Shown: piece by piece, positions 483 through 54,949 of the stretch | Layout: each line of letters begins with the position of its first letter | Numbering within the stretch: the first letter of the stretch is position 1 | Source: an uncultured Candidatus Saccharibacteria bacterium | Lineage (GTDB): Bacteria; Patescibacteriota; Minisyncoccia; Phycocordibacterales; UBA2100 | Assembly (NCBI GenBank): GCA_964623775.1 | Contig: CAZUVH010000003.1 | Coordinates: forward strand, 5,739 to 69,738 | Length of the DNA stretch: 64,000 bases | Direction: 5' to 3' | Made by a program: the position numbers and the translations under genes | Notes under the pieces: generated by a model | Seen by the model: the letters and a program-made list of their open reading frames with translations, nothing else | Told to the model about the DNA's origin: nothing | The model's database searches: none

Positions 483-2132
483 TCACGCGTGCGTGATCAT
501 GCTGCGCTCGATATCAGCGATTGTACCCCCTACTTTTTTGCCAGGATTCAATATATTGAGCGGATCAAATATCTTTTTCACCTCCGAAAATAGTTCCACC
601 ATCTTTTCTCCATACATAAGTGGAAGGTAGGGGGTGCGGACGATGCCGTCGTTGTGTTCACCGGTCGTCGAGCCATGGTATTTCGCGACGAGTGCGTAGA
701 TTTTTGGCTGGAGTTCAAGAATCTCTTTTCGCACCGACTCCTTGCTCAAGTCCATAAGCGGGATGATGTGAAAATTACCATCACCCACATGTCCGGCGAT
801 CGTATAGATGAGGTCGTGCGCATTGAGCATTGAGTTTATCTCGGGAATAAAACGCGGGTAATCATCGGGATGCACGACGATGTCATCGATAAAGGGCGCT
901 GCGTGGAGGCCGTGAAGATTCTTGCGCAAGAGTGAGAAACTCTCTCGGCGGATCGTCCAGTATTTTGCCGATTGCGTCTCGCTTCTCGCGATTTTGGTGC
1001 GCAGCGCAAGACCGTCGAGGCTCGCGCGAGCGGATTTTGCCTTTTCCCACGCCTCCTCTGCAGAATCCTCGGCGAATTCAGCCATGAGGACCAGCTTGGG
1101 GACACCGCCAGTCATCGCCATCCATACCTCCGGGATAAATGCGAAACCGAGTTTGATCATTTGTACGATTCCGAAGTGCCCGATGATTTGCGGGATGAAG
1201 CGGACGGCAAGCTTAAACGTCTGGTCGTCGTACGACTCGAATGATTCGGGAGCATGCTTGAGTACGCGGTGTACGATGTCGGGGAGAATTTCGAAGTCGG
1301 TAAGGAAAACGACGAGCATTGCGCGATGATCCTTGGTCTTCACGAGGCCGAGCTTCATCTTTGTGATGAGTGCGAGCGTACCCTGCGAGCCGGTGATGAG
1401 CTGCGAGAGGTCAAAGGTGCCGCGAGTTTTGTCGATGACATTCCAGAGCGCGTACCCGGCCGAATTCTTGGTCACGTTGGGGCGCGCGGCTTCTATCGCG
1501 GCGGCGTGCGTGTCGAGCAGGTCGTGCATCTCTCTATATATAGAGCCCTCCAGCGTCTGTTCCTTCTGTTTTTCTTCAAGTTCCTGCGCAGTCAGGGGCC
1601 GAAATGTGGCTTGAGAGCCATCAGAGAGTACGACGTCGAGTTCGCGCACGTAGCGATTGGTCTTGCCATACTGCAGCGTGAGTTCTCCGCCGGAATTATT
1701 GGAAACCATGCCGCCGATTGCGCAGAGATTGCGGGAAGCAGGGTAAGAGGGGATGATCTTGCCGCTTTTAGCGAGCGTCTCTTTTTCAAAATCGCGGTAG
1801 TACACACCCGGCTCGGCGATCGCGTAATCGCTGCCAACCTCGATGATGCGATTCATGTATTTCGTAAAAACGACTGAGACGCCGTTGGTGAGCGGTCCGC
1901 CGGTCATGTCGGTACCCGCTGAGCGCGCGGCGAGAGAGATGTCGGTACCGGATTGTTTTTCTACAGCGACCGCACGCACGACCGAGGACACGTCGTCTTT
2001 GTCCTTGGGAAAGACGACCATTGACGGTGTGCGCTCGAAAATACTCGTGTCGTGACTGTATTCCTTGAGTGTCTTCGCGTCATCAGTCACGTCGCCCTTT
2101 ATAAGCGTAGCAATCCGTTCGCGTAAATTCAT
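483..2132 (-). CDS. FAD-binding oxidoreductase, FAD-linked oxidase (GlcD / D-lactate dehydrogenase-like) family
   Basis: 549 aa. N-terminal PCMH-type FAD-binding pattern (…CAIGGMVSNNSGGELTLQYGKTNRYVRELDVVLSDG…) and C-terminal FAD-oxidase-C-like region ending …GEHNDGIVRTPYLP…FDPLNILNPGK. Confidence 0.8.
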   Translation of the reverse strand: MNLRERIATLIKGDVTDDAKTLKEYSHDTSIFERTPSMVVFPKDKDDVSSVVRAVAVEKQSGTDISLAARSAGTDMTGGPLTNGVSVVFTKYMNRIIEVGSDYAIAEPGVYYRDFEKETLAKSGKIIPSYPASRNLCAIGGMVSNNSGGELTLQYGKTNRYVRELDVVLSDGSQATFRPLTAQELEEKQKEQTLEGSIYREMHDLLDTHAAAIEAARPNVTKNSAGYALWNVIDKTRGTFDLSQLITGSQGTLALITKMKLGLVKTKDHRAMLVVFLTDFEILPDIVHRVLKHAPESFESYDDQTFKLAVRFIPQIIGHFGIVQMIKLGFAFIPEVWMAMTGGVPKLVLMAEFAEDSAEEAWEKAKSARASLDGLALRTKIARSETQSAKYWTIRRESFSLLRKNLHGLHAAPFIDDIVVHPDDYPRFIPEINSMLNAHDLIYTIAGHVGDGNFHIIPLMDLSKESVRKEILELQPKIYALVAKYHGSTTGEHNDGIVRTPYLPLMYGEKMVELFSEVKKIFDPLNILNPGKKVGGTIADIERSMITHA

Positions 2133-5410: not shown

Positions 5411-6013
5411 ATGAATTTGATTGCAATGGTACTTGGTCTGGTCGTTCTCCTCGGAGGCGGTTACTTTGTCGCACAAAAAAGCGGCGTTCTCTCCGGCGAC
5501 ACGATGCAGAAAGAATCAACGATCGGCGGGGCGATAGAAGATGCGATGGCAGCAAAAGACGCGATGATGAAAAAAAATGAAGCGACCGAAGCCGCGATGA
5601 TGCAAAAGGACGAGGGGATGACAGCAGGTGACGCCATGATGAAGGATGAGACGATGATGCAAAAGGACGACACAATGATGAAAGGCGAGGAGGGTGCAAT
5701 GATGAAATCTGGCTCGTACGAAACGTATTCACCGGAAAAAATGGCGGCAGCAAAGGGCAGGGTGCTTCTCTACTTCCACGCGGATTGGTGCCCGATCTGC
5801 CGCGGAATCGAAGCGGATATTAAAGCAAATCTCGGAAAGATCCCTGGCGACGTCACGATCCTCAAGGTCAATTACGACGCCGCGACTGATTTGAGACAGA
5901 AGTACGGTGTTACGTACCAGCACACGTTTGTACAAATAAATTCTGATGGGTCTCTCGTCAAAAAGTGGGGCGACAGTACGAGTCTCTCGGGAGCATTGAC
6001 CAAGGTACAATAA
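5411..6013 (+). CDS. membrane-anchored thioredoxin-like protein with a Met-rich repeat linker
   Basis: N-terminal TM helix. Six or more MMxK(D/E)-type repeats (AMMKKNEA, AMMQKDEG, AMMKDETMMQKDDTMMKGEEGAMMK). Trx fold with WCPIC active site (…YFHADWCPICRG…). Confidence 0.75.
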   Translation: MNLIAMVLGLVVLLGGGYFVAQKSGVLSGDTMQKESTIGGAIEDAMAAKDAMMKKNEATEAAMMQKDEGMTAGDAMMKDETMMQKDDTMMKGEEGAMMKSGSYETYSPEKMAAAKGRVLLYFHADWCPICRGIEADIKANLGKIPGDVTILKVNYDAATDLRQKYGVTYQHTFVQINSDGSLVKKWGDSTSLSGALTKVQ

Positions 6014-6097: not shown

Positions 6098-7936
6098 ATG
6101 ATCTTACTCCTGATTTCCTTCATTGCGGGCGTGCTCTCCGTCCTTGCGCCGTGCGTCCTGCCGCTTTTGCCGGTGATCGTGGGGCAATCGGTTACAGGTG
6201 AGCGGAGTCCGCGTCGTGCGATCGTAATCGTGGTCTCGCTCGGCCTCTCGATCGTTCTCTTCACACTGCTCCTCAAGGCGAGCACTGTGTTCATCAATGT
6301 TCCACCGAGCTTTTGGCTCTGGTTTTCCGGCGGTATTTTGATCACTTTTGGTATCGTGATGATGTTTCCGCGTCTCTGGGATTCTCTTGGAATCGTCGCT
6401 CTCGTCAATCGTAGTTCGAATCAGCTGCTCGCGACGGGATATCAGAAAAATTCTTTCTGGGGAGATGTCATTATGGGTGCGGCGCTTGGGCCTGTCTTTT
6501 CGAGTTGTAGCCCGACGTACTTCGTCGTACTTGCGACTGTTCTTCCCGCGTCATTTGCGATGGGGTTGCTCGATCTGATCGCATACGCAATTGGTCTTTC
6601 CGGATTTCTTCTCATTATCGCGCTCCTCGGGCAGCGGCTTGTCGACAAACTTGGGGTAACCATCGAGCCAACTGGATGGTTCCGCCGAGCGATTGGCATA
6701 CTATTTGTCGCGGTAGGTGTCGCTATACTGACCGGATTTGAGAAAAAGGCGGAAATATGGCTCCTCGATCATGGATTCGATATCACAAAAATTGAGCAAC
6801 GGCTCCTGGAAGCAAATCCTCCGAGAAACGAATCGCAAATGTGTGCAGCCGGTTTTTGCCCCGGCCAGGTAAGTGTCACAGAGCTTGCTACTACGACCGA
6901 GGAGATCATTGCCCCCGGGAAAGCTGTTGCCGACGCGAAAATCGCAATACAGGTCACAAAGAAAGCGGCGATGTACGCAAAGGCACCTGAGCTCGTCATG
7001 CCAAACGCTTATATAAATACAGACGGGAAACCAATCACGATTGGCGAATTTCTCGGCAAGAAAGTCGTGCTCATTGATATCTGGACATACAGCTGCATCA
7101 ACTGCCAGCGCACGCTCCCGTATCTCAAGGCATGGCATCAAAAGTACAAAGACCAAGGTCTCGTCATTATCGGCGTACACACACCAGAATTTGCATTCGA
7201 AAAGGTGCAGAAGAACGTGCAGGATGCGGCGATGGGTTTTGGACTCACATATCCGATCGTGCTCGACAATGAGTACAAGACCTGGAACGCATTTGGTAAC
7301 AATTACTGGCCGCGCAAATATCTTATCGATATCGACGGCTATATCGTGTATGACCACGCGGGAGAAGGGCAGTATGAGGAGGCGGAGGAGGCGATTCAGG
7401 CGGCGCTCGCCGAGCGTGCGAAGCGCCTCGGGGCCACTGATATGGCTGATGTAGGCATTACCGCACCGAGCGACGCTGTGGCCGTGCAGTACGGATTGGT
7501 CGGAAGTCCTGAGACGTACTTCGGCGCATGGCGGAATGATAATTTTGGAAACGGTACGCCAGGTCAAATAGGAATCCAGACGCTCACGCTTCCGCAATCA
7601 CTCGCACCCAATGCCTTTTATCTTGATGGTACCTGGAGTTTTGAGCGGGAATATGTGCAAAACGTCACACAGTCGGCGAAACTGCATTTCCGATACCAGT
7701 CAAAAGACGTGTACTTTGTCGCGAGCGCCGACAAGCCGGTCAGAATCAAAGTCACACGCGACGGCGGAAAATCGCTCGGTGCCGCACGAGGCGCGGATGT
7801 CGATCAAAATGGCTACGCGACGATCAATGAGGATCGACTTTACAAATTGATCGAAGATTCCGCGTATGGCGCGCACACGCTCGAGATAGAGGTGGAAGGG
7901 CAGGGGCTCAAAGCCTATACATTTACCTTTGGCTAA
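6098..7936 (+). CDS. DipZ-like thiol:disulfide interchange protein (CcdA/DsbD transmembrane domain fused to a TlpA/redoxin domain)
   Basis: 612 aa. N-terminal CcdA-like 6-TM domain with …LAPCVLPLLP… and a second Cys region (…FSSCSPT…). Then thioredoxin-like …IDIWTYSCINCQRTLPYL…GVHTPEF… and a C-terminal beta-rich domain. Confidence 0.85.
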   Translation: MILLLISFIAGVLSVLAPCVLPLLPVIVGQSVTGERSPRRAIVIVVSLGLSIVLFTLLLKASTVFINVPPSFWLWFSGGILITFGIVMMFPRLWDSLGIVALVNRSSNQLLATGYQKNSFWGDVIMGAALGPVFSSCSPTYFVVLATVLPASFAMGLLDLIAYAIGLSGFLLIIALLGQRLVDKLGVTIEPTGWFRRAIGILFVAVGVAILTGFEKKAEIWLLDHGFDITKIEQRLLEANPPRNESQMCAAGFCPGQVSVTELATTTEEIIAPGKAVADAKIAIQVTKKAAMYAKAPELVMPNAYINTDGKPITIGEFLGKKVVLIDIWTYSCINCQRTLPYLKAWHQKYKDQGLVIIGVHTPEFAFEKVQKNVQDAAMGFGLTYPIVLDNEYKTWNAFGNNYWPRKYLIDIDGYIVYDHAGEGQYEEAEEAIQAALAERAKRLGATDMADVGITAPSDAVAVQYGLVGSPETYFGAWRNDNFGNGTPGQIGIQTLTLPQSLAPNAFYLDGTWSFEREYVQNVTQSAKLHFRYQSKDVYFVASADKPVRIKVTRDGGKSLGAARGADVDQNGYATINEDRLYKLIEDSAYGAHTLEIEVEGQGLKAYTFTFG

Positions 7937-8725: not shown

Positions 8726-8901
8726 AGTGGTCTCCTTTGAATGATCTGCGGTAAATAAACACGAATATCGGAAGAGTGCAATGTCTTTACTCTATATAAA
8801 AAATGTTGTCAAACGCGTATTTGGGTGGAAGAAAGATTAAAAAATTGCTAAATTGCGGCACTTTAGCTTTCATTAGTAATTCATTAATTTTTTGGGGTCC
8901 T

Positions 8902-11900
8902 ATGGATATATCTGTACCTAGAAGCGTTTCTCTTATTTTTAACAAATTGGCTGCAGGCACCGTTGTGCTCGCAATGGTCGTCAGCATGTTCCCAGCCGGT
9001 CTCACCGGTTTTAATTTTGCGTCGGCGGACGACAGTGGTTTTCTTTCACCCACGGTCAAGGATGTGAATCATGACGAATGGAGTAATGCAGACCGTGCAT
9101 TCAGTAGCAACAATAATTACTCAACGGAAACCGACGAGGATGATGACCAGAGCTTTGAAAGTTTCGGTTTCTCGGTGCCATCAGCATCGACAATCAATGG
9201 AGTCGAGGTGAGCATCGAGGGCTTCACTGCTGACCCTTCCGGTTGTCAGGCTGAGGTGCGAATGTGGTCAGACAGCGATAATGAGCATTCTGACTACCGC
9301 ACGCAGTCTGTCACGGACACTGAGGGGACGTATGTCCTCGGCGGGTCATCTGACTTGTGGGGTTCTACATGGATACCATCAGACTTCAGCAACGCGGACT
9401 TCCACGTGGAAATTCGATTTGATGATGTAGGAAGTGGTACCTGTGATGACATAGATGTTGAAAATGGTGGCATCGACATCAACCACAGCGGCAGTGTCAG
9501 CAGTTCTGATGATGGCTCCCTGGGCGGGAAGACCATAATTGACGGACGAGTTGATTGGGATAACAACGGTGTCGTAAATGGCAGCGATGATTCCTCTGCA
9601 AATGCGTTCCTTGGCAAAACGATCATCGATGGATGGGTAGACTTCAATGGCAGTGGAACGATTAGTGGTAGTGGAAGCAGTGACGACGGCGAGCTTGTGA
9701 ATAACACGTTCTCGCTCGATCACATCCAAGTGAAAGTCCATTACACTCCAGATGCATGCAATGATGTGTTCACGTACGAAAAGGAGAGCGACTACAGCGA
9801 TGCTCGCGTGGCCATCGACTTCCATGGCTTTGGTGGTAATGAAATTGACGTGTCGGCGCAAACTGGTTACGAAATTCAGGAAGTTTGGCTGGATGTCGAA
9901 GGTGATGGCGAATCAGGTTACTACCTCTATGCAACGGGCCCCGTAGACGACTTCAATCCACCAGGTGGCGAGATTGACGAAGCAAAAATCATAGTCAAAA
10001 AGACCTGCAACGGTGTATTGGAGGTGAAGAAAGTAATTGTCGGCGGTCATGATGGAGATGACGCAGAAGACTTCTCCTTCACGGTTGCGACAAATGACAG
10101 CGTTACGGTCCCGCAGAGTTTCGAAGCGGACGGCCAGAATGATCTCTCACTCGCTCCTGACACCTACACTGTCACAGAAACCGCAGCGGCGGGATGGGTC
10201 ACTACATACGAAAATTGCTCCGACGTTTCTCTCGCACTTGGTGAGACAGAGACCTGTACCATAACCAACACAAGACTCGGCTCGATCACAATTGTGAAGG
10301 AGACGGTGCCCGGCGAAGTAGATCAAGACTTCGTCTTCACGACGAGCGAAGGTCTCGCGGAGGGGAATCAGTTCACCCTCAATACATCCGAGGAAAGCCA
10401 GGTTACATTCAGCGGACTCGAGGCCGGTGAGTATTCGATTACGGAAACGGAAGTTCCCGGCTATGTTCTCACGAATGTGAGCTGTGTAGCAGATGGTGCG
10501 GAATACATTGTTGAAGACAATATGGTATCGATCGGTCTCAGTAACACCACTGATGTAGTGTGTACTTTCACCAATAAGCGACTTCCGATGCTGACGGTCT
10601 ACAAATATGCTTCTCCGCTCGACACGTCCTTCGACATTACGGTAGAGAATACTACGCTCGCGACGAGCAGCATCTTTACAGCTGATGTCGCAGGTGATGG
10701 TGAGGCAAACAGCGGTAATACGTATCATTACGTTGCGCTTGGCGACTACACTCTCACAGAAACACTTCCTGAGGGCTGGGGTGCAAATGGTACAGGCGGT
10801 GTCTCGAGCTCTGTCTGCTACAAGAATGGTGATGCGTCGGATATGGACGACACATCGATCAGCACATCTCTCGCGTATGGCGACGTAGTCAACTGTATCT
10901 TCAACAACACCCCGAATTCAATCCTTGCCGGAGACAAATTCGAGGATATGGATGGTAAGGGCGAAAGCACGGAAGGGGATGGTCTCAGCGGATGGACCAT
11001 TAGACTCTTTGAGTGGGATGGTGACAGTTGGGATTTTGAGGACGACACAACGACGGATGCAGGAGGCATGTTCAACTTCGGCAACATTCAGCCTGGCAAA
11101 TACCTCCTTTGCGAACAAGAACAGAGCAGTTGGTACCAATCAGTACCGTCTGACAGCACCACCCCGCCCGCAGGCGCTGTGGTCACGAGCTGCATCAATG
11201 ACGTGACTTGGGGTTCGGCCAAGGGTTACAGAATCGAAATCGTTGATGTGCCGGTCGCAACCACGACGGCAACTGTCGACGATCAGGAGGTGGTGATTGC
11301 AGAGCCGCTCGAGGGTGACGACGAATTTCCGGGCCAGGTATTCGATGGCTTCCGTTTTGGTAACTACCAGAAAGGATCCATCGGTGGCATAAAGTGGAAC
11401 GACGAAGACTCGAACGGTGTTCTCTGCACGGAGGAGATGGATGCAAATGATGAATGCACAGAAGAACAGGCTCCAGACAACAAGTGGTACATCGCTTACT
11501 CGGGTCCTTACAACAATGGCGGTGAATGGACCTCTGCAGGCACCTTCTCGTTCACCAATCTCGAGCCGGGCACATACACCTTGAGCGAATCCATGCAATC
11601 AGGGTGGGCACAGACGTACCCATACCTTTCGACGGGAAATCAGACGCATACCGTGGTCGTGCAATCAGGCGATCACAAGGTTCGCAATTTCGGCAACGTC
11701 GGTGACTCAACCATTTCAGGTGAGAAATGGAATGATGTCGACGGAGATGGGGTGAAAGACGAAGGCGAAACTACACCGGGCACTTCGTTCACATTCGAGC
11801 TGTACAAGATAGTCGGTGAGACATCAACACTGGTCACTACGCAGAGTGATAACGACGGATACACTTTCAGTGGCCTGCTCTCGGGTACCTACATGGTATG

Positions 11901-13299
11901 TGAGGTTGAAACTTCCGGCTGGGAACAGACATACCCCGCAGATGATGGTTGCCATACGGTGACCGTGGGTATTGATCAAGACTCGACCGACAATGACTTC
12001 GGCAACATTGAGGTGGTCGACATCTCTGGTATGAAGTACCACGACAAGAACAGAAACGGCGTCAAAGATGAAGGTGAGTTCGGCCTCTCGGGCTGGACCA
12101 TCACGGCGACTCCGATCGTAGATTCGTGCAACGACGGATGCTGGGAGGAGGACACAGACAATATGAAGACGACAACGACAGATAGTGACGGCAACTACGT
12201 CTTCCATATCAAAAACAGCGAGACAGGAACGTGGCGAATTGCGGAAGTAAATCAATCCGCATGGACACAGACCGCGCCCACAGATCCGAGCTACTACGAC
12301 ACTCAGGTCTCGATCGGTGATCCATCCACAGGAAATAACTTCGGCAATTGGAAGTGGCCGGTCATACAGGTATACAAGTGGACCGATCTCAACTCGAACG
12401 GCACTCAAGACGAGGGTGAGGGGCCAGTCGCTGGTTACCCGATCGCAGTTGGCCAGATCACAGGCAGTGAAGGAGGTGAGGAAGGCGCCGACGCTCTCAA
12501 TGTGGAAATTATCACCACTGAGCTCACCGGCTCCGATGGCTTTGCTAATATCGCTCTCAATCCCGCTTGGTTCGAGGACGGCCTCACGCAAAGTGAGTTG
12601 AACAATCTCGTTGTGTTTGAGGGTCAGCAGAGCAATTGGACGAAGACCTTCCCGAATTTCACGCACAATGACACGATCAATATCACCTGGCGCGACGGCC
12701 TCATTCCAATCACACTTCTCACAGACTCATTCTTCGATGTCTTCACAGAGGGCATATTCTCTGGCGGCGGCACTGCAACAGCAGGTCTTCAACACGACAC
12801 GTACTCACCTGAGACTTCACTCAAGTTTGGCAACCACTACACCGAGCCGGTGACGGAGACGCCGTCGACCCCGACGAATGGCGGTGGTGGGGGTGGCGGC
12901 AACGGCCCGATCGCGGGATCTCTCCCGGCTGGTCAGGTACTTGGCGCATTCGCAAGTTCGAATGGCCAAGTGCTCGGTGAATCTGCGTGCAGTGCAGTAC
13001 TCCTCACCGACTTCATGCGCCGCGGCAAGAAGAATGATCCAGAACAGGTGAAGCTCCTGCAGGAATTCCTCAACAAGGAAATGGGCCTCAACCTCCCAGT
13101 TACAGGCTTCTTTGGACCGTTGACCGAGAATGCGGTCAAGAGCTTCCAGATCAAGTACGCGGCTGACATCCTGACGCCATGGAATCTGTCGGAACCGACC
13201 GGATTCGTGTACCTCACGACGCTCCGCAAGATCAATCAGATCCACTGCGAAGCGCTCAATATCCCGATGCCTGAGCTCGTTCCATTCAGTGGCGAGTAA
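8902..13299 (+). CDS. giant secreted cell-surface protein with about five Cna-B / SdrD-B-like (prealbumin-fold) repeats and a C-terminal peptidoglycan-binding (PG_binding_1-like) domain
   Basis: Signal peptide MDISVPRSVSLIFNKLAAGTVVLAMVVSMFPAGLTGFNFASA|DD. Repeated (K/E)(F/W/Y)xDxDG/NxNGxxDxGE…G(W/F)T…(Y/W)xQTxP units (e.g. ISGEKWNDVDGDGVKDEGE…SGWEQTYPA). Poly-Gly linker GGGGGGG, then …VKLLQEFLNKEMGLNLPVTGFFGPLTENAVKSFQ… Start set at 8902; the ORF extends to 8803 without a signal-like sequence. Confidence 0.75.
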   Translation: MDISVPRSVSLIFNKLAAGTVVLAMVVSMFPAGLTGFNFASADDSGFLSPTVKDVNHDEWSNADRAFSSNNNYSTETDEDDDQSFESFGFSVPSASTINGVEVSIEGFTADPSGCQAEVRMWSDSDNEHSDYRTQSVTDTEGTYVLGGSSDLWGSTWIPSDFSNADFHVEIRFDDVGSGTCDDIDVENGGIDINHSGSVSSSDDGSLGGKTIIDGRVDWDNNGVVNGSDDSSANAFLGKTIIDGWVDFNGSGTISGSGSSDDGELVNNTFSLDHIQVKVHYTPDACNDVFTYEKESDYSDARVAIDFHGFGGNEIDVSAQTGYEIQEVWLDVEGDGESGYYLYATGPVDDFNPPGGEIDEAKIIVKKTCNGVLEVKKVIVGGHDGDDAEDFSFTVATNDSVTVPQSFEADGQNDLSLAPDTYTVTETAAAGWVTTYENCSDVSLALGETETCTITNTRLGSITIVKETVPGEVDQDFVFTTSEGLAEGNQFTLNTSEESQVTFSGLEAGEYSITETEVPGYVLTNVSCVADGAEYIVEDNMVSIGLSNTTDVVCTFTNKRLPMLTVYKYASPLDTSFDITVENTTLATSSIFTADVAGDGEANSGNTYHYVALGDYTLTETLPEGWGANGTGGVSSSVCYKNGDASDMDDTSISTSLAYGDVVNCIFNNTPNSILAGDKFEDMDGKGESTEGDGLSGWTIRLFEWDGDSWDFEDDTTTDAGGMFNFGNIQPGKYLLCEQEQSSWYQSVPSDSTTPPAGAVVTSCINDVTWGSAKGYRIEIVDVPVATTTATVDDQEVVIAEPLEGDDEFPGQVFDGFRFGNYQKGSIGGIKWNDEDSNGVLCTEEMDANDECTEEQAPDNKWYIAYSGPYNNGGEWTSAGTFSFTNLEPGTYTLSESMQSGWAQTYPYLSTGNQTHTVVVQSGDHKVRNFGNVGDSTISGEKWNDVDGDGVKDEGETTPGTSFTFELYKIVGETSTLVTTQSDNDGYTFSGLLSGTYMVCEVETSGWEQTYPADDGCHTVTVGIDQDSTDNDFGNIEVVDISGMKYHDKNRNGVKDEGEFGLSGWTITATPIVDSCNDGCWEEDTDNMKTTTTDSDGNYVFHIKNSETGTWRIAEVNQSAWTQTAPTDPSYYDTQVSIGDPSTGNNFGNWKWPVIQVYKWTDLNSNGTQDEGEGPVAGYPIAVGQITGSEGGEEGADALNVEIITTELTGSDGFANIALNPAWFEDGLTQSELNNLVVFEGQQSNWTKTFPNFTHNDTINITWRDGLIPITLLTDSFFDVFTEGIFSGGGTATAGLQHDTYSPETSLKFGNHYTEPVTETPSTPTNGGGGGGGNGPIAGSLPAGQVLGAFASSNGQVLGESACSAVLLTDFMRRGKKNDPEQVKLLQEFLNKEMGLNLPVTGFFGPLTENAVKSFQIKYAADILTPWNLSEPTGFVYLTTLRKINQIHCEALNIPMPELVPFSGE
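10925..12700 (+). repeat. about five tandem ~330-bp coding repeats (Cna-B/SdrD-B-like modules) inside the surface-protein gene
   Basis: Protein-level periodicity beginning DKFEDMDG…, GSIGGIKWNDEDSNG…, ISGEKWNDVDGDG…, ISGMKYHDKNRNG…, IQVYKWTDLNSNG…. Confidence 0.6.
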
Positions 13300-19072: not shown

Positions 19073-19948
19073 ATGTTTAAGGAGGGGGCACTCGACACGA
19101 GAACGTCGGTTCTCATTGGCGGAGTTTTGGCTACTTCTGTATTTCTTGCGAATCCTAGTGTCTACAAAATCGGTACTACTCTTCCAAATTTCCATTTCTC
19201 GACCACCGCGTCGCACGAGAGCGCTGTCACGGTGCAGCTCGGGCCCTCGACGCTTCAAATCTCAGTCCCAGCTCCTCATGTATCGCAATCTCAAGTTGCA
19301 TCTGTCGCACTTCCAGCAGATGGGCCAATCATTTATGATCCTGCGTCTGCGTCGATTACAATGGCAACTCCGCAGCTGATCGAGACGACAATCGTTGGGG
19401 CATCCATGCAGAGCGCTTCGGACGTCGCCCCTATTTCAGCCAGCGTCGCAACTCCTGCGATCTCCGAGACAATCGCTCCGGCCGTACCCGAGACTCCTGT
19501 GCCGGCAATTTCAGTACCAGTCCCGATCGAATCGGTGCAGGTACAAGCGCCAGTTCAAGAAAGTGCCACGCCATCGGTACCAGCAGATACAGTAATCGAA
19601 AATACCGCAGTAGAAAGTGCCGTGTCCGCTCCTGCAGCCGCTGAACCGGTTGTTACCCCTGTCGCAGAATCTGTCCAAGAAGTAGAAACGCCCGCCGTGA
19701 CAACCCCTGTTGAAGAAATTCCAACCGCATCGGAGACTCCCGTAGAGGCACCAGCAGCTATTCCAGTACTTCCAGTCGAAGAATGCCACCCGAGCTATAT
19801 CCCGTGTTTGCGCATTGATGCGAGTGATTATGATTGCGAAGGAGGTACAGGAAACGGCCCATACTACACAGGTAAGGTGCAGGTAATCGGTCCCGACGTG
19901 TTCGGGCTTGATAAAAATGGCGACGGGTGGGGATGCGAGGCGAGCTAA
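19073..19948 (+). CDS. secreted/anchored protein with a Pro/Ala/Val/Glu-rich linker and a C-terminal Excalibur (extracellular Ca-binding) domain
   Basis: C-terminal …CLRIDASDYDCEGGTGNGPYYTGKVQVIGPDVFGLDKNGDGWGCE contains the DxDxDGxxCE Excalibur signature. N-terminal hydrophobic anchor. Confidence 0.6.
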   Translation: MFKEGALDTRTSVLIGGVLATSVFLANPSVYKIGTTLPNFHFSTTASHESAVTVQLGPSTLQISVPAPHVSQSQVASVALPADGPIIYDPASASITMATPQLIETTIVGASMQSASDVAPISASVATPAISETIAPAVPETPVPAISVPVPIESVQVQAPVQESATPSVPADTVIENTAVESAVSAPAAAEPVVTPVAESVQEVETPAVTTPVEEIPTASETPVEAPAAIPVLPVEECHPSYIPCLRIDASDYDCEGGTGNGPYYTGKVQVIGPDVFGLDKNGDGWGCEAS

Positions 19949-20697
19949 GAATTACAAATCTTCAGTAGCTCATCAAGGACGACGGATGTATCGGCGGGGC
20001 CCGTCACCATACGTGTCTTTACGCCGGTAGGGATCACGACGTAATCGTTGCCGCCCGGATAGAGCGCGTCACCGACGTAGAGCATCTCACCCGGTGCACA
20101 ATCGAATTTTTTTGCCATCCATTCCACGCCGTACGCTTTGTTGATGCCTTTGCGCGTGATGTCGATCGTTGTCATGCCACCGATCAAGACCTCGAATTCG
20201 GGCAGCTGCTTCTCGAGCATTTTTTTTAGCTTCGTCCGCTTGGTCTGGTCTGGATCCCATGCCTTTTTCTGCTCGAGCGGCGCATCGAGCCCGATAGCCG
20301 CGAAGGCGATCTGTGCCTCGCGATCGATAATGCGCCATTTGTACGCAGAATCTTCGCTCACGATGCTTTTTGCGTCTTTTTGGATCGCATCGGCGATCTG
20401 TAGGCGCTCCTCGTGTGTCAGGGCAAAGGTGTAGCCTCTTTGCCACGATTCTCCGTCCCAGGAGTAGCACTCGGCGGCGCTGTTGGGGAATACGTAGAAT
20501 CGCCATACGTTCTTCGATTTTTCTATTTCCGGCAGTATTTGCTCCTGCACACGCGCAAAACCGGCCGCGGTGATGATCGCGCACGGCATATAGTCGAGGA
20601 GGCGTCGTAATTTATCGAGCGTTTCCGGTTTTGGAGGTCGAAAACTCTCGGCAAGAGTATCATCGAGATCGAAGAGGGCGGCTTTCGGACAATTCAT
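19945..20697 (-). CDS. HAD-superfamily hydrolase, subfamily IIB-like (phosphomannomutase / sugar-phosphatase-like)
   Basis: N-terminal FDLDDTL (HAD motif I) and …LYVGDALYPGGNDY… (motif IV). Confidence 0.7.
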   Translation of the reverse strand: MNCPKAALFDLDDTLAESFRPPKPETLDKLRRLLDYMPCAIITAAGFARVQEQILPEIEKSKNVWRFYVFPNSAAECYSWDGESWQRGYTFALTHEERLQIADAIQKDAKSIVSEDSAYKWRIIDREAQIAFAAIGLDAPLEQKKAWDPDQTKRTKLKKMLEKQLPEFEVLIGGMTTIDITRKGINKAYGVEWMAKKFDCAPGEMLYVGDALYPGGNDYVVIPTGVKTRMVTGPADTSVVLDELLKICNS

Positions 20698-37313: not shown

Positions 37314-38702
37314 TCAGGAGCGGATGAGCGCAAGGATCTCGTCGCGCTTTTTTTCCATAAGCTCTTTGTATGTGGCTTCAACGATGAGGCGAATCAGGGG
37401 CTCGGTATTGGAGAGGCGTACGCTAAACCAGTAGTCATTGTACGTGATCGAAAGTCCGTCGATCTGTGAGAGCGCACCATCCCTGTATTTTTCCTGGATC
37501 TGTTTCAATTTCTCGAGACCCTTTTCTCGACTTTCGAGCTTTGTATTGATCTCCCCCGAATTGAAATAGCGCTTATATGGCTTTACGATTTCTGAAAACG
37601 GCTTATCCTTTGCGGTGAGAAAATGGAGAAGCTTCGAGAGGAGCATAAAAGGCGCCTCAAACGTGCCGTAGGGGAGTTTGTAAAAAAAGTGCCCGGAAGA
37701 TTCTCCACCGAAGATCGCCTTTTCCTTGATCATGATCTCTTTTATGATCGAGTGCCCAACGGGGGAGCGGATCGCTCGACCGCCCGCGTCGTCGATCATG
37801 TCGCGCGTGATCTTGCCGGGGCGCACATCGTATACCACTGTGGCACCGATGTGCGTGAAAAGTTCGATCTGCGCAAGAATGCCACGCAATATTTCTTGCG
37901 GGACCAGCTCGCCTTTTTCGTCGAAGAAAAAGTAGCGGTCGCCATCGCCATCAGAGGAGATGCCGAGATCGCAGTGTTCCTCGACGATCTTTTTACGCAG
38001 GTCGGCGGTGTTCTCCTCCTTCATGGGGTCTGCTGGATGCGCAGGGAAGGTGCCGTCGGGCGTATCGTTCATCCATACGACTGTGCACGGCAATTTTGCA
38101 AAAAAAGCCTTCATGTCGGGACCGCCCATGCCGTTTGCCCCATCGATCGCGATCTTGAACGGTTTGATCTTGGCAAAATCTTTGCCGATTTCCTCCATTT
38201 GTTCGTTGAGAATTGTGTCGAGGACGCCGGGTCGCTGCTGCAAAATGCCACGATCCTTTTCAGCTACCAGCGGCGCGTACTGGTCGTTTTCGATCGTCTT
38301 TTTTACCTCTTCAATTCCGCTCGTGTAGCTGACGGGCGTTGCATGGCGGCCGACAAATTTGAATCCGTTCCAGTCCTTGGGATTATGCGAGGCCGAGACC
38401 TGTGCGCCGGCATCGTAGCCGTAATATGCGACGGCAAAATAAAAAGTCGGCGTGGAGAGCATGCCGATGTCGTCGACTGCGATACCACTATCGAGCAGAC
38501 CTCGGATGAATTGCTGCTTGAGCTCGGGCGTCGAAAGACGCATGTCTCCCGCCACCGCGACACGCATCGTCTCGCGGGGCATTTTTTTGAGGAGGAACGT
38601 CGCATAGCTTCGCCCGATCGCATACGCGACATCTGTATTGATCTGAGAGGGGTAGAGGCCGCGGACATCGTAGGCTTTAAATATGGATGCTTCAACTTTC
38701 AC
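37314..38702 (-). CDS. phosphoglucomutase/phosphomannomutase family protein
   Basis: 462 aa; …GAQVSASHNPKDWNGFKF… contains the SASHNP phosphoserine-loop motif; apparently GTG start. Confidence 0.8.
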   Translation of the reverse strand: MKVEASIFKAYDVRGLYPSQINTDVAYAIGRSYATFLLKKMPRETMRVAVAGDMRLSTPELKQQFIRGLLDSGIAVDDIGMLSTPTFYFAVAYYGYDAGAQVSASHNPKDWNGFKFVGRHATPVSYTSGIEEVKKTIENDQYAPLVAEKDRGILQQRPGVLDTILNEQMEEIGKDFAKIKPFKIAIDGANGMGGPDMKAFFAKLPCTVVWMNDTPDGTFPAHPADPMKEENTADLRKKIVEEHCDLGISSDGDGDRYFFFDEKGELVPQEILRGILAQIELFTHIGATVVYDVRPGKITRDMIDDAGGRAIRSPVGHSIIKEIMIKEKAIFGGESSGHFFYKLPYGTFEAPFMLLSKLLHFLTAKDKPFSEIVKPYKRYFNSGEINTKLESREKGLEKLKQIQEKYRDGALSQIDGLSITYNDYWFSVRLSNTEPLIRLIVEATYKELMEKKRDEILALIRS

Positions 38703-38713
38703 CTAAAAAGTAT

Positions 38714-38819
38714 ACCACCACACCAATAGTGGTAAGTCAGACTCCATCCTCAAAAACAAAATATATATATGCATTTGACTCCGGTGCGCAATATTTTCAG
38801 CTATTGGTGTGGTGGTGTA
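38714..38819. promoter_or_regulatory. about 105-bp palindromic element: 17-nt arms TACCACCACACCAATAG / CTATTGGTGTGGTGGTGTA flanking an AT-rich 70-bp core
   Basis: Perfect complementarity of arms seen in sequence. The same CAGCTATTGGTGTG(A/G)TGGTA arm recurs at 50349-50369. Confidence 0.45.
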
Positions 38820-38838
38820 GCATGTGATGCTATCAAAA

Positions 38839-40032
38839 TCAGGATACGTCGCCTGAGTAGTCCACAAGTATTTCACTCACAGTACTGACCTGCTCTCTTC
38901 CGGTGGCCTCAGTACTTTTGGACGCACTCGGCAAGAGTACTGATACGGTTGTACCGCTTCCCACCTCGCTTCTCACGGTAATCTTGCCGCGGTGCATGCG
39001 CACAAGCTCGGAGACAATCGTGAGGCCAAGGCCAGAGCCGCCCTGTATACGCGAACGCGAAGGATCGCCACGATAAAATGGTTCGAAAATGCGAAAGAGG
39101 TCTTTGCGGGCGATACCCACACCCGTGTCGCGCACGGTGAGTTCGACCTGCCCGCTTGCAGTTTGCCATGTCGTCAGGATCACAGAGCCGCCACGCGGAG
39201 TGTGGGTGATCGCGTTCTTGATGAGATTGCTCAGTATTTGCTGCAACGCTGTCATGTTGCCATATACATACACGTCGGTGCTTTTGCGCACGGTAATCTG
39301 CACGTTGCAGCGCGCCGCAAGACCAGCGTGCTTCGCCACAGCTTCACTCGCGAGTGCCGAAATATCGATCGAGCTGAACTCCATCTGCTCGGGACGGGTG
39401 AGACTCGAGAGCGAGAGGAGGTTGTTGATAATCTCTGATATGCGGTCGAGTTCCTCTACATTGCTCGTAATTGCCTCCTTGATGTCTGGCGTGATGGACG
39501 AATCAAAAAGCATGATCTCGCTGTTGGTCTTTATGACCGAAAGTGGCGTGCGCAGTTCGTGCGCGATATTGCCAATAAATTGCTTTTGCGCGGCGAGCGC
39601 GCTACGGGCAGGGGAGAGTGTTATGCGCGATATGATGTATCCGAAGACCATTGTGGCGACGACAATAAAAATCCCCATGAGGCCGACGTTCTGTAGGCGC
39701 AGCTGTTTCGTCTCTGCAATTATTCCAGGGGCGACCACACTTGCCGCATTGTGAGAAATTGATTCGCTGATCGTCGAGAAGATGATGGCCGCCACATCGT
39801 GCGAGAGCGTGTTGAAGACGACGAGAATCACGCCGATGATGAGCGACGCGAAAATCACCTGGAGTCCCAAGACGCGAATCTCCACCCGGAAGAACGGGTC
39901 GTCCTCGTATCTATTGAGCCAATCGGTAACCAATGCCGCGAACCGTTTCAAGGAGGTCGCGACCGTTTCCTTCACTGAGTTTGCGTCGGAGGTTTTTGAC
40001 ATGGACATCGACGACGTTACTGAATCCCACAT
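38839..40032 (-). CDS. sensor histidine kinase (2 TM, HisKA + HATPase_c)
   Basis: …IAHELRTPLSV… H-box; …GGSGLGLTIV… G2 box. N-terminal 40 codons overlap the upstream RR gene, so the start is uncertain. Confidence 0.8.
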   Translation of the reverse strand: MWDSVTSSMSMSKTSDANSVKETVATSLKRFAALVTDWLNRYEDDPFFRVEIRVLGLQVIFASLIIGVILVVFNTLSHDVAAIIFSTISESISHNAASVVAPGIIAETKQLRLQNVGLMGIFIVVATMVFGYIISRITLSPARSALAAQKQFIGNIAHELRTPLSVIKTNSEIMLFDSSITPDIKEAITSNVEELDRISEIINNLLSLSSLTRPEQMEFSSIDISALASEAVAKHAGLAARCNVQITVRKSTDVYVYGNMTALQQILSNLIKNAITHTPRGGSVILTTWQTASGQVELTVRDTGVGIARKDLFRIFEPFYRGDPSRSRIQGGSGLGLTIVSELVRMHRGKITVRSEVGSGTTVSVLLPSASKSTEATGREQVSTVSEILVDYSGDVS

Positions 40033-47665: not shown

Positions 47666-48250
47666 TTGAAATCCACGAGGCCTCTTGTAGAATGCCCGCG
47701 CATGTCTGTCGTTAACCGTCCCACGATCAAGGGAGCATACATCCTCAGCCATATACAGGCTCTTCTCGATGAGCGTGGCGGCGGGGCAGTCGAGGAATTG
47801 AGAAAGCGATATGGTAAGTCTCTCGACTTCAAAAGCGACGAATACGTACCTGTTAGAACAGAAGTGGAAGTATTGGAACATATCGTCGATATTTCCACAC
47901 CGAAAAAACTCTCTCCGGATGAGCGCGCACTCCTTGCGGGGCGGCTCGCTTTTAAGAATTTCACCTCCTCGCTGCTGTGGAGAGCACTCATGCCGCTTGT
48001 CCACACGAATCCCAAGGCAGCGCTCATGCGCGCTCATCACATTGCGAGCCAGGTTTTTCAAGGTGTTGTTTTTACACCCGAGGATGCGGGTGTATCGACG
48101 GTGAATATGAAGCTTGAGAACAACGATTATCCGCTCGCGTATTTCCAAGGATTCTTTGAGGAAGGGCTCGTGGTCGCGCATCTGACTGGTGCAGTAGAAG
48201 CCGATACAGACTCCCGCGGGGCCTACGTGTACACCATCACCTGGAAATAA
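47666..48250 (+). CDS. hypothetical protein
   Basis: 194-aa ORF, no recognisable motif. Confidence 0.4.
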   Translation: MKSTRPLVECPRMSVVNRPTIKGAYILSHIQALLDERGGGAVEELRKRYGKSLDFKSDEYVPVRTEVEVLEHIVDISTPKKLSPDERALLAGRLAFKNFTSSLLWRALMPLVHTNPKAALMRAHHIASQVFQGVVFTPEDAGVSTVNMKLENNDYPLAYFQGFFEEGLVVAHLTGAVEADTDSRGAYVYTITWK

Positions 48251-49941: not shown

Positions 49942-50184
49942 ATGAAATGGATGCATATGGTTACCTGGATACTCGTCATAGTGGGCGGCGTCAATTGGGG
50001 ACTCGTGGGCTTGGGCGCCTTCATGATGAAAGACTGGAATCTCGTTCACATGATCTTGGGCTCAATGCCGCAGGTCGAGTGGGCAGTCTACGTGCTCGTC
50101 GGTCTCGCAGCAGTCTACGAGATCGTCATGCACAAGAAGATCTGCAAGGATTGCGGCGTTTCCGCAGCTCCTTCGACGATGTAG
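49942..50184 (+). CDS. DUF378 family small membrane protein
   Basis: …ILVIVGGVNWGLVGLGAF… hallmark of DUF378. Confidence 0.65.
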   Translation: MKWMHMVTWILVIVGGVNWGLVGLGAFMMKDWNLVHMILGSMPQVEWAVYVLVGLAAVYEIVMHKKICKDCGVSAAPSTM

Positions 50185-50205
50185 TGCGATTTGTAGAAAG
50201 AAGGC

Positions 50206-50229
50206 AAAACCGCCCGAAAGGGCGGTTTT
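50206..50229 (+). terminator. terminator hairpin aaaaccgccc-gaaa-gggcggtttt
   Basis: Perfect 10-bp stem after the DUF378 stop. Confidence 0.65.
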
Positions 50230-50255
50230 GTGTACCTACACCCGCTCTTCACGAG

Positions 50256-50371
50256 GTGTGGTACACCATGACACCAATAGAGTCGGATTTGGATGTCTGG
50301 ATGCGCGTCACAACTATTTGCACGTTTTCCAGTCTATCTCGAATTCGACAGCTATTGGTGTGATGGTACAC
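50256..50371. promoter_or_regulatory. second copy of the palindromic element: arms GTGTGGTACACCATGACACCAATAG / CTATTGGTGTGATGGTACAC about 70 bp apart, upstream of a TATAAT box
   Basis: The right arm CAGCTATTGGTGTGATGGTACAC is near-identical to 38798-38819. TATAAT at 50380-50385; ATG at 50409. Confidence 0.45.
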
Positions 50372-50408
50372 TCTTTTTCTATAATCAATCTTTTAAATCA
50401 CTCATCGT

Positions 50409-50906
50409 ATGAAAACACTTATTTGGATCACAGTTGCACTTATTATCCTCGCGGGAGCGTGGTGGTATTTTGGAATGTCGGTCGCGACAGCACCAATACC
50501 GACACCCACGACTGACACTGTTTCACCGAACCCCGCTACGACAACCGACAACGCGACGACTACAGGCACAACTACAGATACTGGCGCCAGTGCCGCGCCC
50601 ATGAGCGTTACGGTCGTGTACGGTTCGCAGGGTTTTACCCCGGCGACGGTCACGATCGCGAAGGGCGGCTCAGTCAAATGGGTCAATGAGAGCGGTTCGT
50701 CGATGTGGGTAGCAACTGATGAGCACCCCTCGCACATCGTGTACGCCGGCACTACGCGTCAGCAGCACTGTCCTGATGCAAGCGGCGAGGCTTTCGATCA
50801 GTGCGCGCCGGGCAATGACTACTCGTTTACCTTCAGCAAGACGGGGTTATGGCAGTATCATGATCACATGAACGCTGCTCGTGGCGGTACTGTCGTCGTA
50901 CAATAG
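50409..50906 (+). CDS. membrane-anchored secreted protein, possibly a cupredoxin-like metal-binding domain
   Basis: N-terminal TM, Thr/Pro-rich linker, ~100-aa beta-rich domain with …DEHPSH…QHCPD…DQCAPG…YHDHM… (His/Cys/Met cluster). Family assignment tentative. Confidence 0.35.
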   Translation: MKTLIWITVALIILAGAWWYFGMSVATAPIPTPTTDTVSPNPATTTDNATTTGTTTDTGASAAPMSVTVVYGSQGFTPATVTIAKGGSVKWVNESGSSMWVATDEHPSHIVYAGTTRQQHCPDASGEAFDQCAPGNDYSFTFSKTGLWQYHDHMNAARGGTVVVQ

Positions 50907-54059: not shown

Positions 54060-54839
54060 TTAGAGCTGCAGCGTTGTACCGACCGCGAGATGGTCTGAGA
54101 CGCGGTGGGGGAAAGTGCGGTAGTCGCTCATCGTGAGGTGCGGTGAAGTCATGATCCAATCGATACGGCGTGTCGGGCGGATTGCCGGGAAGGTGTGGAG
54201 GCTCCTGTCGCTCTCACCGAATTTATGAGTGGAGACGCCGAGCTTGGACATGAGAGATTTGATGTGTGGGGAGCGCATCGATCCATTGAGATCGCCACCG
54301 ATAACGAGAGGACCTTTTTCTTTGAGTGAATGGGAGAGCTGCTCGATCTGTACGTGGCGCGATCGTGTTTTCAATATATCGAACGAGACAAGGTGTACAG
54401 ATGCCACGGTGAGCGTGACACCCGGAGACACCGTGAGCGTCGCACTCAAGAAGCCTTTGCGCGGCGTGGGGAATGAGAGCTCGAATTTTACATTCTCCAC
54501 ATCGGTCATTGGATAGCGCGAGATGATGCCGCAGCCAGCGGAATAGATCAGCCGGTCGCGACGGTGGAGTTCGCTCGAGGCGCCATATGCCGAGTACTGA
54601 TGGCCGATCTTGGATTGGATATAGGAGAGCTGATCAATCTTGCGTGTGAGTGGGGAGGTGCGATCGACTTCCTGTAAGAGCACGACGTCGGCATCGTATG
54701 AGCCAATGAGGTCTACTATTCTGTCGAGATTTTCTATCGCCATTCTTTCGGGGATATAGACGCGGGGGAGCGTATGGCCCGCATTCCACCCGTGTTGGAT
54801 GTTGAGAGAGATGATACGCACATCTTCCTTCGGGCGCAT
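54060..54839 (-). CDS. endonuclease/exonuclease/phosphatase (EEP) family protein
   Basis: …IISLNIQHG…, …VVLLQEVD…, …GGDLNGS…, …IDWIMTS…SDHLAV… EEP catalytic motifs. Confidence 0.7.
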   Translation of the reverse strand: MRPKEDVRIISLNIQHGWNAGHTLPRVYIPERMAIENLDRIVDLIGSYDADVVLLQEVDRTSPLTRKIDQLSYIQSKIGHQYSAYGASSELHRRDRLIYSAGCGIISRYPMTDVENVKFELSFPTPRKGFLSATLTVSPGVTLTVASVHLVSFDILKTRSRHVQIEQLSHSLKEKGPLVIGGDLNGSMRSPHIKSLMSKLGVSTHKFGESDRSLHTFPAIRPTRRIDWIMTSPHLTMSDYRTFPHRVSDHLAVGTTLQL

Positions 54840-54949
54840 GTGTGCAGTATACCGTGCGAGAAGTGTGGAGATGAAGAAGGCGCTTGCATAGAATGCTCTA
54901 CAGTGCTGTACTAGCTACAGTTTCATAAGGCTTCAGAGAGGAGGGTGTC

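Follow-up and report, generated by a model that had tools for sequence, protein, structure and literature searches.

Palindromes upstream of a phosphoglucomutase/phosphomannomutase gene and a cupredoxin-like gene probably belong to a MITE family inserted at the -10 boxes of putatively leaderless genes

The window, the whole 64-kb stretch of DNA that was analysed, has a G+C content of ~52% and is ~90% coding. Two palindromes with near-perfect inverted arms are present at 38714-38819 (copy A) and 50256-50371 (copy B), as claimed in the first-pass annotation of this DNA. Copy A separates a minus-strand histidine kinase gene with HisKA/HATPase domains (38839..40032), whose stop codon faces it, from the GTG start of a minus-strand gene (37314..38702) encoding a phosphoglucomutase/phosphomannomutase (PGM/PMM) with Pfam domains PGM_PMM_I-IV. 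The kinase gene is immediately preceded by a gene for an OmpR-type response regulator. The sole ORF overlapping copy A (38703..38876, 57 amino acids) begins within the kinase gene. Copy B is preceded by a DUF378 gene (49942..50184) and a hairpin and followed by a cupredoxin-like gene (50409..50906). The tool call for this hairpin (50205-50230) is on the minus strand, but a T run is also found 3' of it on the plus strand and the hairpin is thus read as the intrinsic terminator of the DUF378 gene. Named homologues of three flanking proteins come from Candidatus Kaiserbacteria, Paceibacterota, Saccharibacteria and the Parcubacteria group, so that the genome of the window is probably Patescibacteria (CPR)-like. 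Elsewhere in the window, the gene at 8803..13299 (plus strand) encodes a large surface protein of 1498 residues with SpaA/SdrD-B prealbumin-like repeats and a peptidoglycan-binding domain, which has no NCBIfam match. The features of the two loci are as follows.

38700..38702, minus strand: GTG that starts the PGM/PMM gene (37314..38702), with the -10-like TATACT 6 nt before it
38709-38714, minus strand: -10-like hexamer TATACT of the PGM gene
38710..38715, no strand: gene-proximal target-site duplication GTATAC of copy A (compare the empty site in L039)
38716..38729, plus strand: left terminal inverted repeat of copy A, CACCACACCAATAG
38730..38800, plus strand: 71-bp interior of copy A, with weak similarity to the Ga0210388 family interior
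38801..38814, plus strand: right terminal inverted repeat of copy A, CTATTGGTGTGGTG
38815..38820, no strand: distal target-site duplication GTGTAG of copy A (CTACAC on the minus strand)
50205..50230, plus strand: G+C-rich hairpin between the DUF378 gene (49942..50184) and copy B; context only
50261..50266, no strand: distal target-site duplication GTACAC of copy B, with the original TG before it (empty sites in L064 and L068/L069)
50267..50280, plus strand: terminal inverted repeat of copy B, CATGACACCAATAG, two mismatches to the consensus
50281..50351, plus strand: interior of copy B, 71 bp, an imperfect palindrome extending the hairpin
50345-50350: -35-like TCGACA inside the interior of copy B
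50352..50365, plus strand: terminal inverted repeat of copy B, CTATTGGTGTGATG, its final two bases being the TG of an extended -10 motif
50366..50371, no strand: gene-proximal target-site duplication GTACAC of copy B (empty sites in relatives)
50367-50372: -10-like hexamer TACACT upstream of the cupredoxin-like gene (50409..50906)

The arms of copy A extend over 38711-38729 and 38801-38819 (19 nt, 95% complementary, one mismatch) and include the 17 nt of perfect complementarity described earlier; the AT-rich core that was reported with them is also confirmed, the interior holding an atatatatat tract. In copy B the arms extend over 50265-50280 and 50352-50367 (16 nt, 94% complementary, one mismatch), and the separation between the arms is 71 nt in both copies. 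The inverted arms are therefore present as claimed, but their outer 5-6 nt are duplicated target DNA that lies outside the element: the nucleotides formerly counted as arm are GTATAC and GTGTAG in copy A and GTACAC on both sides of copy B. Measured between the outer repeat ends, the non-coding element is 96-99 bp long across the family (99 bp in each of copies A and B), and it is delimited by consensus 14-bp terminal inverted repeats, CACCACACCAATAG ... CTATTGGTGTGGTG, which carry 0-2 mismatches in 15 copies. The interiors of copies A and B give no alignment and are unrelated in sequence.

Empty counterparts of both sites are found in related genomes. The closest relative, whose PGM is 82% identical, keeps the order NTP-transferase, response regulator, kinase and PGM in three assemblies (L039-L041), with just 38 nt and no element between kinase and PGM (...gagCATGaTACAC/TTTTTccATG, the slash marking the junction; full stretch ...gagCATGaTACACTTTTTccATG). 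The empty site in L039 reads CATGaTACAC/TTTTTccATG and the same strand of the window reads CATGcTACAC-(CACCACACCAATAG...CTATTGGTGTGGTG)-GTATAC-TTTTTagGTG, that is, a 99-bp insertion plus a duplicated hexamer. The element of copy A is also absent from L042, a 72%-identical relative. The distal duplication of copy A lies 18 nt from the kinase stop codon, and the GTG start at 38700-38702 is placed 7 nt past GTATAC and 13 nt past the 14-nt repeat. Copy B is bounded by a perfect GTACAC duplication, and its empty sites agree with both of its flanks, reading ...gggccgTGGTACAC/TCTTTCGATAT... (TCTTTCG) in L064 and ...catgatacaTGATACAC/TCTTTCGATAT... in L068/L069, where a DUF378 gene and a terminator are located upstream. 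In two assemblies of the relative with the 82%-identical PGM (L066 4247-4427 and L067 4247-4392) the contigs end 146-181 nt past the DUF378 gene, and synteny breaks after this gene since the next ORF differs from the cupredoxin-like gene of the window.

Two copies from a second genome (Ga0210388, described below) also bear on the duplication. In L021 (Ga0210388_10004479, 5670-5780) a direct repeat GTATGAC, of 7 nt and not 6, is found on both sides of the element; the left one contains the TGA stop of a gene for a 585-residue T2SSE (PilB-like) ATPase and the right one contains the ATG of a response-regulator gene. As GTATGAC is present on each side, the ATGA stop/start overlap is duplicated and both genes are intact. 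In L023 (Ga0210388_10000043, 192-366) the element sits in the 3' end of a tRNA-Met gene between the non-palindromic duplications CCCCGA and TCCCGA, and CACCA, the first five bases of its repeat, takes the place of the final acceptor base, discriminator and CCA of the tRNA. Both insertions would survive through restoration of the cut sequence, by the duplication or by the repeat. A GIY-YIG-like ORF begins 25 nt past the repeat in L023. Since GTATAC is itself palindromic, in most copies the duplication looks the same as an extension of the inverted repeat; copies A and B, L021 and L023 identify the outer GTATAC as target DNA in spite of its palindrome-like appearance, and the duplication length of ~6 bp rests on these four copies (7 bp in L021). 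A duplication of 8 bp (TGGTACAC in copy B) was considered and rejected, for the other copies have AA or other bases distally, not TG, and symmetric 14-bp repeats result from 6 bp only.

Searches of the window with the 16-mer CTATTGGTGTGRTGGT, allowing up to three mismatches, gave five matches against 0.72 expected, four of the five being arms of copies A and B, and the paired pattern CCAATAG-N60-85-CTATTGG gave two matches against 0.01 expected, in keeping with the earlier view that the palindromes are not due to chance. Looser pattern searches and an nhmmer profile detected no further copies in the 64-kb window, and the 50 kb of the closest relative that were examined likewise gave none. At 48229 a 12-nt match lies within a coding ORF and was not accepted as an extra copy. 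A scan of metagenome contigs for the same kind of core pattern returned 24 stretches, 11 of which are located on six long contigs of a single metagenome, Ga0210388. These 11 stretches comprise 12 copies, and with one degenerate copy recognised later in L021 the total is at least 13; this second copy of L021 lies 4.5 kb from the first, in front of pilM. The Ga0210388 copies have common arms (GTATACCACCACACCAATAG ... CTATTGGTGTGGTGGTATAC), whose 10-nt cores, on which the scan was based, are separated by 68-70 nt; the interiors of these copies can be aligned and are found in both orientations (nhmmer 68-101 bits). Against a profile built from these copies, with the window copies excluded, copy A scores 48.9 bits in the plus orientation, which is taken as its own, and 31.4 bits in reverse; copy B matches weakly, with 19.4 bits against 15.4 for the reverse.

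The Ga0210388 genome is distant from the window, with one common protein match, ~26-38% identical, and no orthologous flanks. Its contig Ga0210388_10000043 carries a heme cluster (L070, 10001-14040) of hemC, hemD, a chlorite-dismutase-like protein gene, uroD and a ferrochelatase gene, and because such a cluster is unusual for Patescibacteria the host may belong to another phylum. Identical repeats in two genomes so far apart fit a horizontally spreading element and not a host operator. A collection of species-representative genomes, from which the species of the window is apparently absent, contains 13 matches to ACACCAATAG-N60-85-CTATTGGTGT, about the number estimated for chance, none of them with extended arms. 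Viral contigs gave 18 single, unpaired matches to the 17-nt arm, with no partner arm, which were taken as chance, and BLAST of the element against plasmid and phage collections gave no match. Perfect palindromes that continue into the flanks are seen in Ga0123357 and Ga0123355 sequences (L015 2699-2786, L016 1251-1338 and L036 3781-3868), the arms of L015, CATCACACCAATAG, being identical to the right repeat of copy B; these palindromes probably arose as fold-back artefacts of assembly at a repeat that is either unrelated or a distant relation.

The copies occupy a recurrent position relative to start codons. In most of them a start codon is located 13-14 nt past the 14-nt repeat and 7-8 nt past the hexamer, in the form GTATACT-N6-ATG. 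Starts at 13-14 nt past the repeat are supported by Pfam or by the source for GlyRS, HemC, bPH_2, PilM, HAD, CorA, PD-(D/E)XK and the PGM of the window, and two more ORFs without a family match start at the same distance. HemC (hydroxymethylbilane synthase) and bPH_2 flank opposite sides of one copy, and independent gene calls use exactly those starts. The element ends abut promoter -10 boxes, a point absent from the first-pass annotation. Unoccupied GTATACT-N6-ATG promoters are present in both genomes, two of them in 20.9 kb of Ga0210388_10000043. The window holds 11 GTATAC sites, nine coding and two intergenic (the copy A duplication and a site at 54847), and both intergenic sites are -10 boxes. 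The latter site (54840-54856) reads GGTATACT-gcacac-ATG before the gene 54060..54839 (minus strand). A TAnnnT hexamer 6-7 nt before the start, with no Shine-Dalgarno sequence, is seen in the window at 483..2132, 19945..20697 and 54060..54839 (all minus strand) and in L070 at the genes at 7353, 8825..9235 (minus strand), 11455 and 15734; Shine-Dalgarno-led genes coexist with these. The TAnnnT layout suggests, as a reading of the sequences, that leaderless mRNAs are frequent in both genomes.

The element itself contributes sequence to these putative promoters. It ends in ...GGTG, which with the adjoining hexamer gives TG-G-TATACT, an extended -10 motif; the promoters of the empty sites also have the TG (TGaTACACT in L039 and L068, TGGTACACT in L064). 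In copy B a consensus scan found TCGACA, 16 nt and TACACT with TG, the -35-like hexamer being within the element; copy A has no canonical -35. These observations may be brought together as follows. It is presumed that the repeats are bound by a transposase encoded elsewhere, whose cut, staggered by 6 bp, would duplicate 6 bp of target, the preferred target being a near-palindromic hexamer, GTATAC or GTACAC. Intergenic GTAYAC would mostly be the -10 box (TAYACT) of leaderless-gene promoters, 6-7 nt before the start codon. On the simplest reading, a strong preference for GTAYAC combined with the loss of gene-breaking insertions would leave the surviving copies in -10 boxes. Because insertion duplicates the -10 box, one copy of it stays at the original distance from the gene, and an extended -10 would gain its TG from the element end, which in copy B would also contribute the -35-like hexamer 16 nt upstream. 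With the duplicated -10, the TG and, in copy B, the -35-like hexamer, the promoter would be rebuilt rather than destroyed, and such rebuilding would explain why survivors are placed there, mostly in one orientation. Where a gene start is found on one flank only, it lies at the same element end in nine of 10 copies, a count in which the orientation of copy B rests on just 4 bits; the exception is L021. The position equivalent to a -35 holds GTTACC or TCGACA at the gene-start end and ACTGCA at the other end, and because these hexamers differ between the element ends we think that orientation may be filtered by promoter function. An asymmetric target preference (A-GTATAC-Y) would give the same orientation bias.

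The family is assigned to the MITEs because the element is small, has terminal inverted repeats and a target duplication, is multi-copy and varies in presence between relatives. The element is also non-coding, its duplication corresponds to an empty site in single copy, and its dispersed copies number at least 13 in Ga0210388 and just two in the 64-kb window. Pfam/NCBIfam searches of ~40 window ORFs gave no transposase domain, and none was found in the related loci. The window, ~150 kb of related loci and viral contigs yielded no autonomous element in which these repeats enclose a transposase gene, and no unpaired repeat was detected in the window or the related loci. Since no autonomous element was found, mobility by a transposase is deduced from the footprints of insertion. 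Taken as a whole, it is very probable that the palindromes are a MITE family which inserts with a 6-bp duplication at the -10 boxes of putatively leaderless genes and would leave the promoter rebuilt. The family is undescribed, the kind of element is familiar and the insertion site is unusual.

The Correia elements of Neisseria have a 26-bp repeat and a TA duplication. The window family is like them in size, inverted repeats, copy number, upstream position, promoter sequences and hairpins; the repeats are unrelated, however, and the window family has a 14-bp repeat and a 6-bp duplication at GTATAC-like sites. As the repeat sequence and the duplication differ, the window family is not Correia. 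In addition, the -10 box of the window family derives from the duplicated target and not from the element, unlike in Correia elements (CREE or NEMIS), which are non-coding, ~100-150 bp long, multi-copy, framed by terminal inverted repeats and located mainly immediately upstream of genes, and which carry sigma-70-like promoters able to drive the neighbouring gene and form hairpins when transcribed (PMC10969869). Prokaryotic IS-derived MITEs such as MITEAba12, Nezha and Chunjie are small, non-coding and intergenic, with terminal inverted repeats, target-site duplication and presence or absence between relatives (PMC10969869; PMC6382973; PMC11602168). In contrast to these generic elements, no parent IS was found for the window family, its host is Patescibacteria-like, and it strongly prefers a palindromic target of 6 bp which is at the same time part of a promoter. 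The literature searched yielded no account of a MITE in Patescibacteria or CPR-like genomes. Copy B, an intergenic imperfect palindrome of ~110 bp that is better conserved than its surroundings, resembles ERIC/IRU elements in being a long palindrome of this type, whereas the interiors of copy A and the Ga0210388 copies are not palindromic. ERIC is not known to have a target duplication of this type, and its sequence is different. The staggered cut that duplicates a target with a symmetric consensus is shared with IS10/Tn10. IS10 prefers NGCTNAGCN; the window family differs in having a duplication of 6 bp and not 9, another consensus and no transposase found. IS200/IS605-derived elements and REP/BIME, which have subterminal hairpins but neither terminal inverted repeats nor a target duplication (REP being ~35 bp), are excluded by the terminal inverted repeats and the 6-bp duplication. 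Integron attC sites, imperfect palindromes with R''/R' core sites (RYYYAAC ... GTTRRRY) at their ends that follow cassette ORFs on the 3' side near an integrase, were rejected as well: the element ends are CACCAATAG and CTATTGGTG, not GTTRRRY, the elements lie on the 5' side of genes, and the window ORFs tested include no integrase.

The first-pass annotation had offered three explanations, an operator pair, a structured RNA or a miniature repeat, of which the last is upheld by the duplication, the empty sites and the multi-copy family. That the arms are an operator pair for a dedicated DNA-looping regulator, such as the adjacent OmpR-type protein, with the PGM and cupredoxin-like genes as its regulon, is very unlikely, even though two identical sites with a fixed spacing of 71 nt lie beside promoters, the proximal arm falls between -13 and -26 of a putative promoter and genes for a two-component system lie immediately upstream of copy A. 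In the closest relative the two-component genes and the PGM promoter are kept while the arms are wholly absent, relatives have the cupredoxin promoter without arms, and in the distant genome the same arms and target duplications flank unrelated genes (GlyRS, hemC, pilM and a tRNA); moreover, a single arm is neither a dyad nor an 11-bp direct repeat. Equally slim is the prospect that the element encodes a small structured RNA or forms a leader RNA with a cis-regulatory role. The single-sequence folds do predict strong hairpins (-37 to -52 kcal/mol, z-scores -4 to -6.3) and the differences in copy B preserve structure, but the window has no Rfam match at gathering and five element loci have none at E<=1 other than a 25.8-bit match to a plant microRNA hairpin whose gathering score is 110. 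Furthermore, consensus folding of 12 Ga0210388 copies on both strands retains the terminal stem only, with no interior consensus, no internal promoter/terminator pair was found, and the empty sites identify the element as an insertion. In most copies the element would lie outside the mRNA, since the start codon follows 6-7 nt after a -10 located downstream of the element. An intrinsic terminator formed by the arms and a T run was also rejected: the tool matches in copy A fold within a single arm and the T run after the arm is inconsistent among copies. Chance similarity may be practically dismissed; it has in its favour just the two copies in the window, against which stand the identical spacing, the excess over expectation of the paired pattern and the same arms of 14-20 nt in 13 further copies elsewhere.

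A possibility that deserves more weight, although we hold it to be unlikely, is that single copies of MITE origin, chiefly copy B, are domesticated and are now kept by the host, possibly as the upstream half of a promoter (TG and -35) or as a long hairpin which, when it forms in read-through RNA, insulates the gene that follows. Copy B is found at the same site in L062, whose cupredoxin-like protein is 73% identical, and over the part available (1-98 of L062, a contig that begins inside the element and is the only filled relative, against 50282-50371) the two copies are identical at 88 of 93 positions (94.6%), against 57% in the spacer to the ATG and 73.6% in the coding sequence. Because the identity of the element far exceeds that of its flanks (57-74%), a neutral relic is disfavoured for copy B. 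All four differences keep the predicted hairpin: they comprise a C-to-G change matched by a C inserted on the opposite side, the change of a G.U pair to A-U and a TA insertion in the apical loop. Two other relatives have the empty site, one of them, L064, being an outgroup to the window and L062, and TCGACA is found in copy B at the right -35 spacing. Copy B is thus either an old insertion with the whole element under selection or the product of near-identical copies gained independently at the same preferred target. Across the family, folding of the strand that reads toward the gene is more stable by 3.0 kcal/mol on average (nine of 13 copies), the orientation bias is nine of 10, and mirrored changes in both repeats are seen at position 2 of L031 and position 3 of copy B, next to unpaired changes in L021, L023 and L025; a constraint on pairing is weakly hinted at by the mirrored changes and the strand difference in folding. 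Paired changes of this kind can also arise by template-switch mutation in quasi-palindromes, without selection. Against domestication it also counts that copy A and the Ga0210388 copies have no conserved interior structure, that two independent insertions at the same hot target are possible and that the comparison of the window, L062 and L068 rests on 90 nt. A further, rather doubtful reading is that the element is a promoter-homing module, whose transposase would target the GTAYAC -10 of leaderless genes, with the element adding the TG and a -35-like hexamer at its gene-proximal end and some copies, copy B in particular, being domesticated; the duplicated -10 could then turn one promoter into two back-to-back. 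The MITE family with rebuilt promoters, as set out above, is the reading that we prefer.

MITEs are known across bacteria. CPR-like genomes are small and densely packed, and little mobile DNA and few regulators are thought to occur in them. The family provides a ready marker for strain-level variation and for horizontal exchange between distant uncultured lineages, and its precise link to start-adjacent -10 boxes is indirect evidence that leaderless transcription may be common in these organisms. Were the promoter-homing reading true, a mobile element would be rewiring transcription initiation in genomes of minimal regulatory capacity. If promoter rebuilding by the MITE family holds, it would illustrate how a parasite can last in a genome that is 90% coding, by confining its insertions to sites where the sequence it disrupts is restored.
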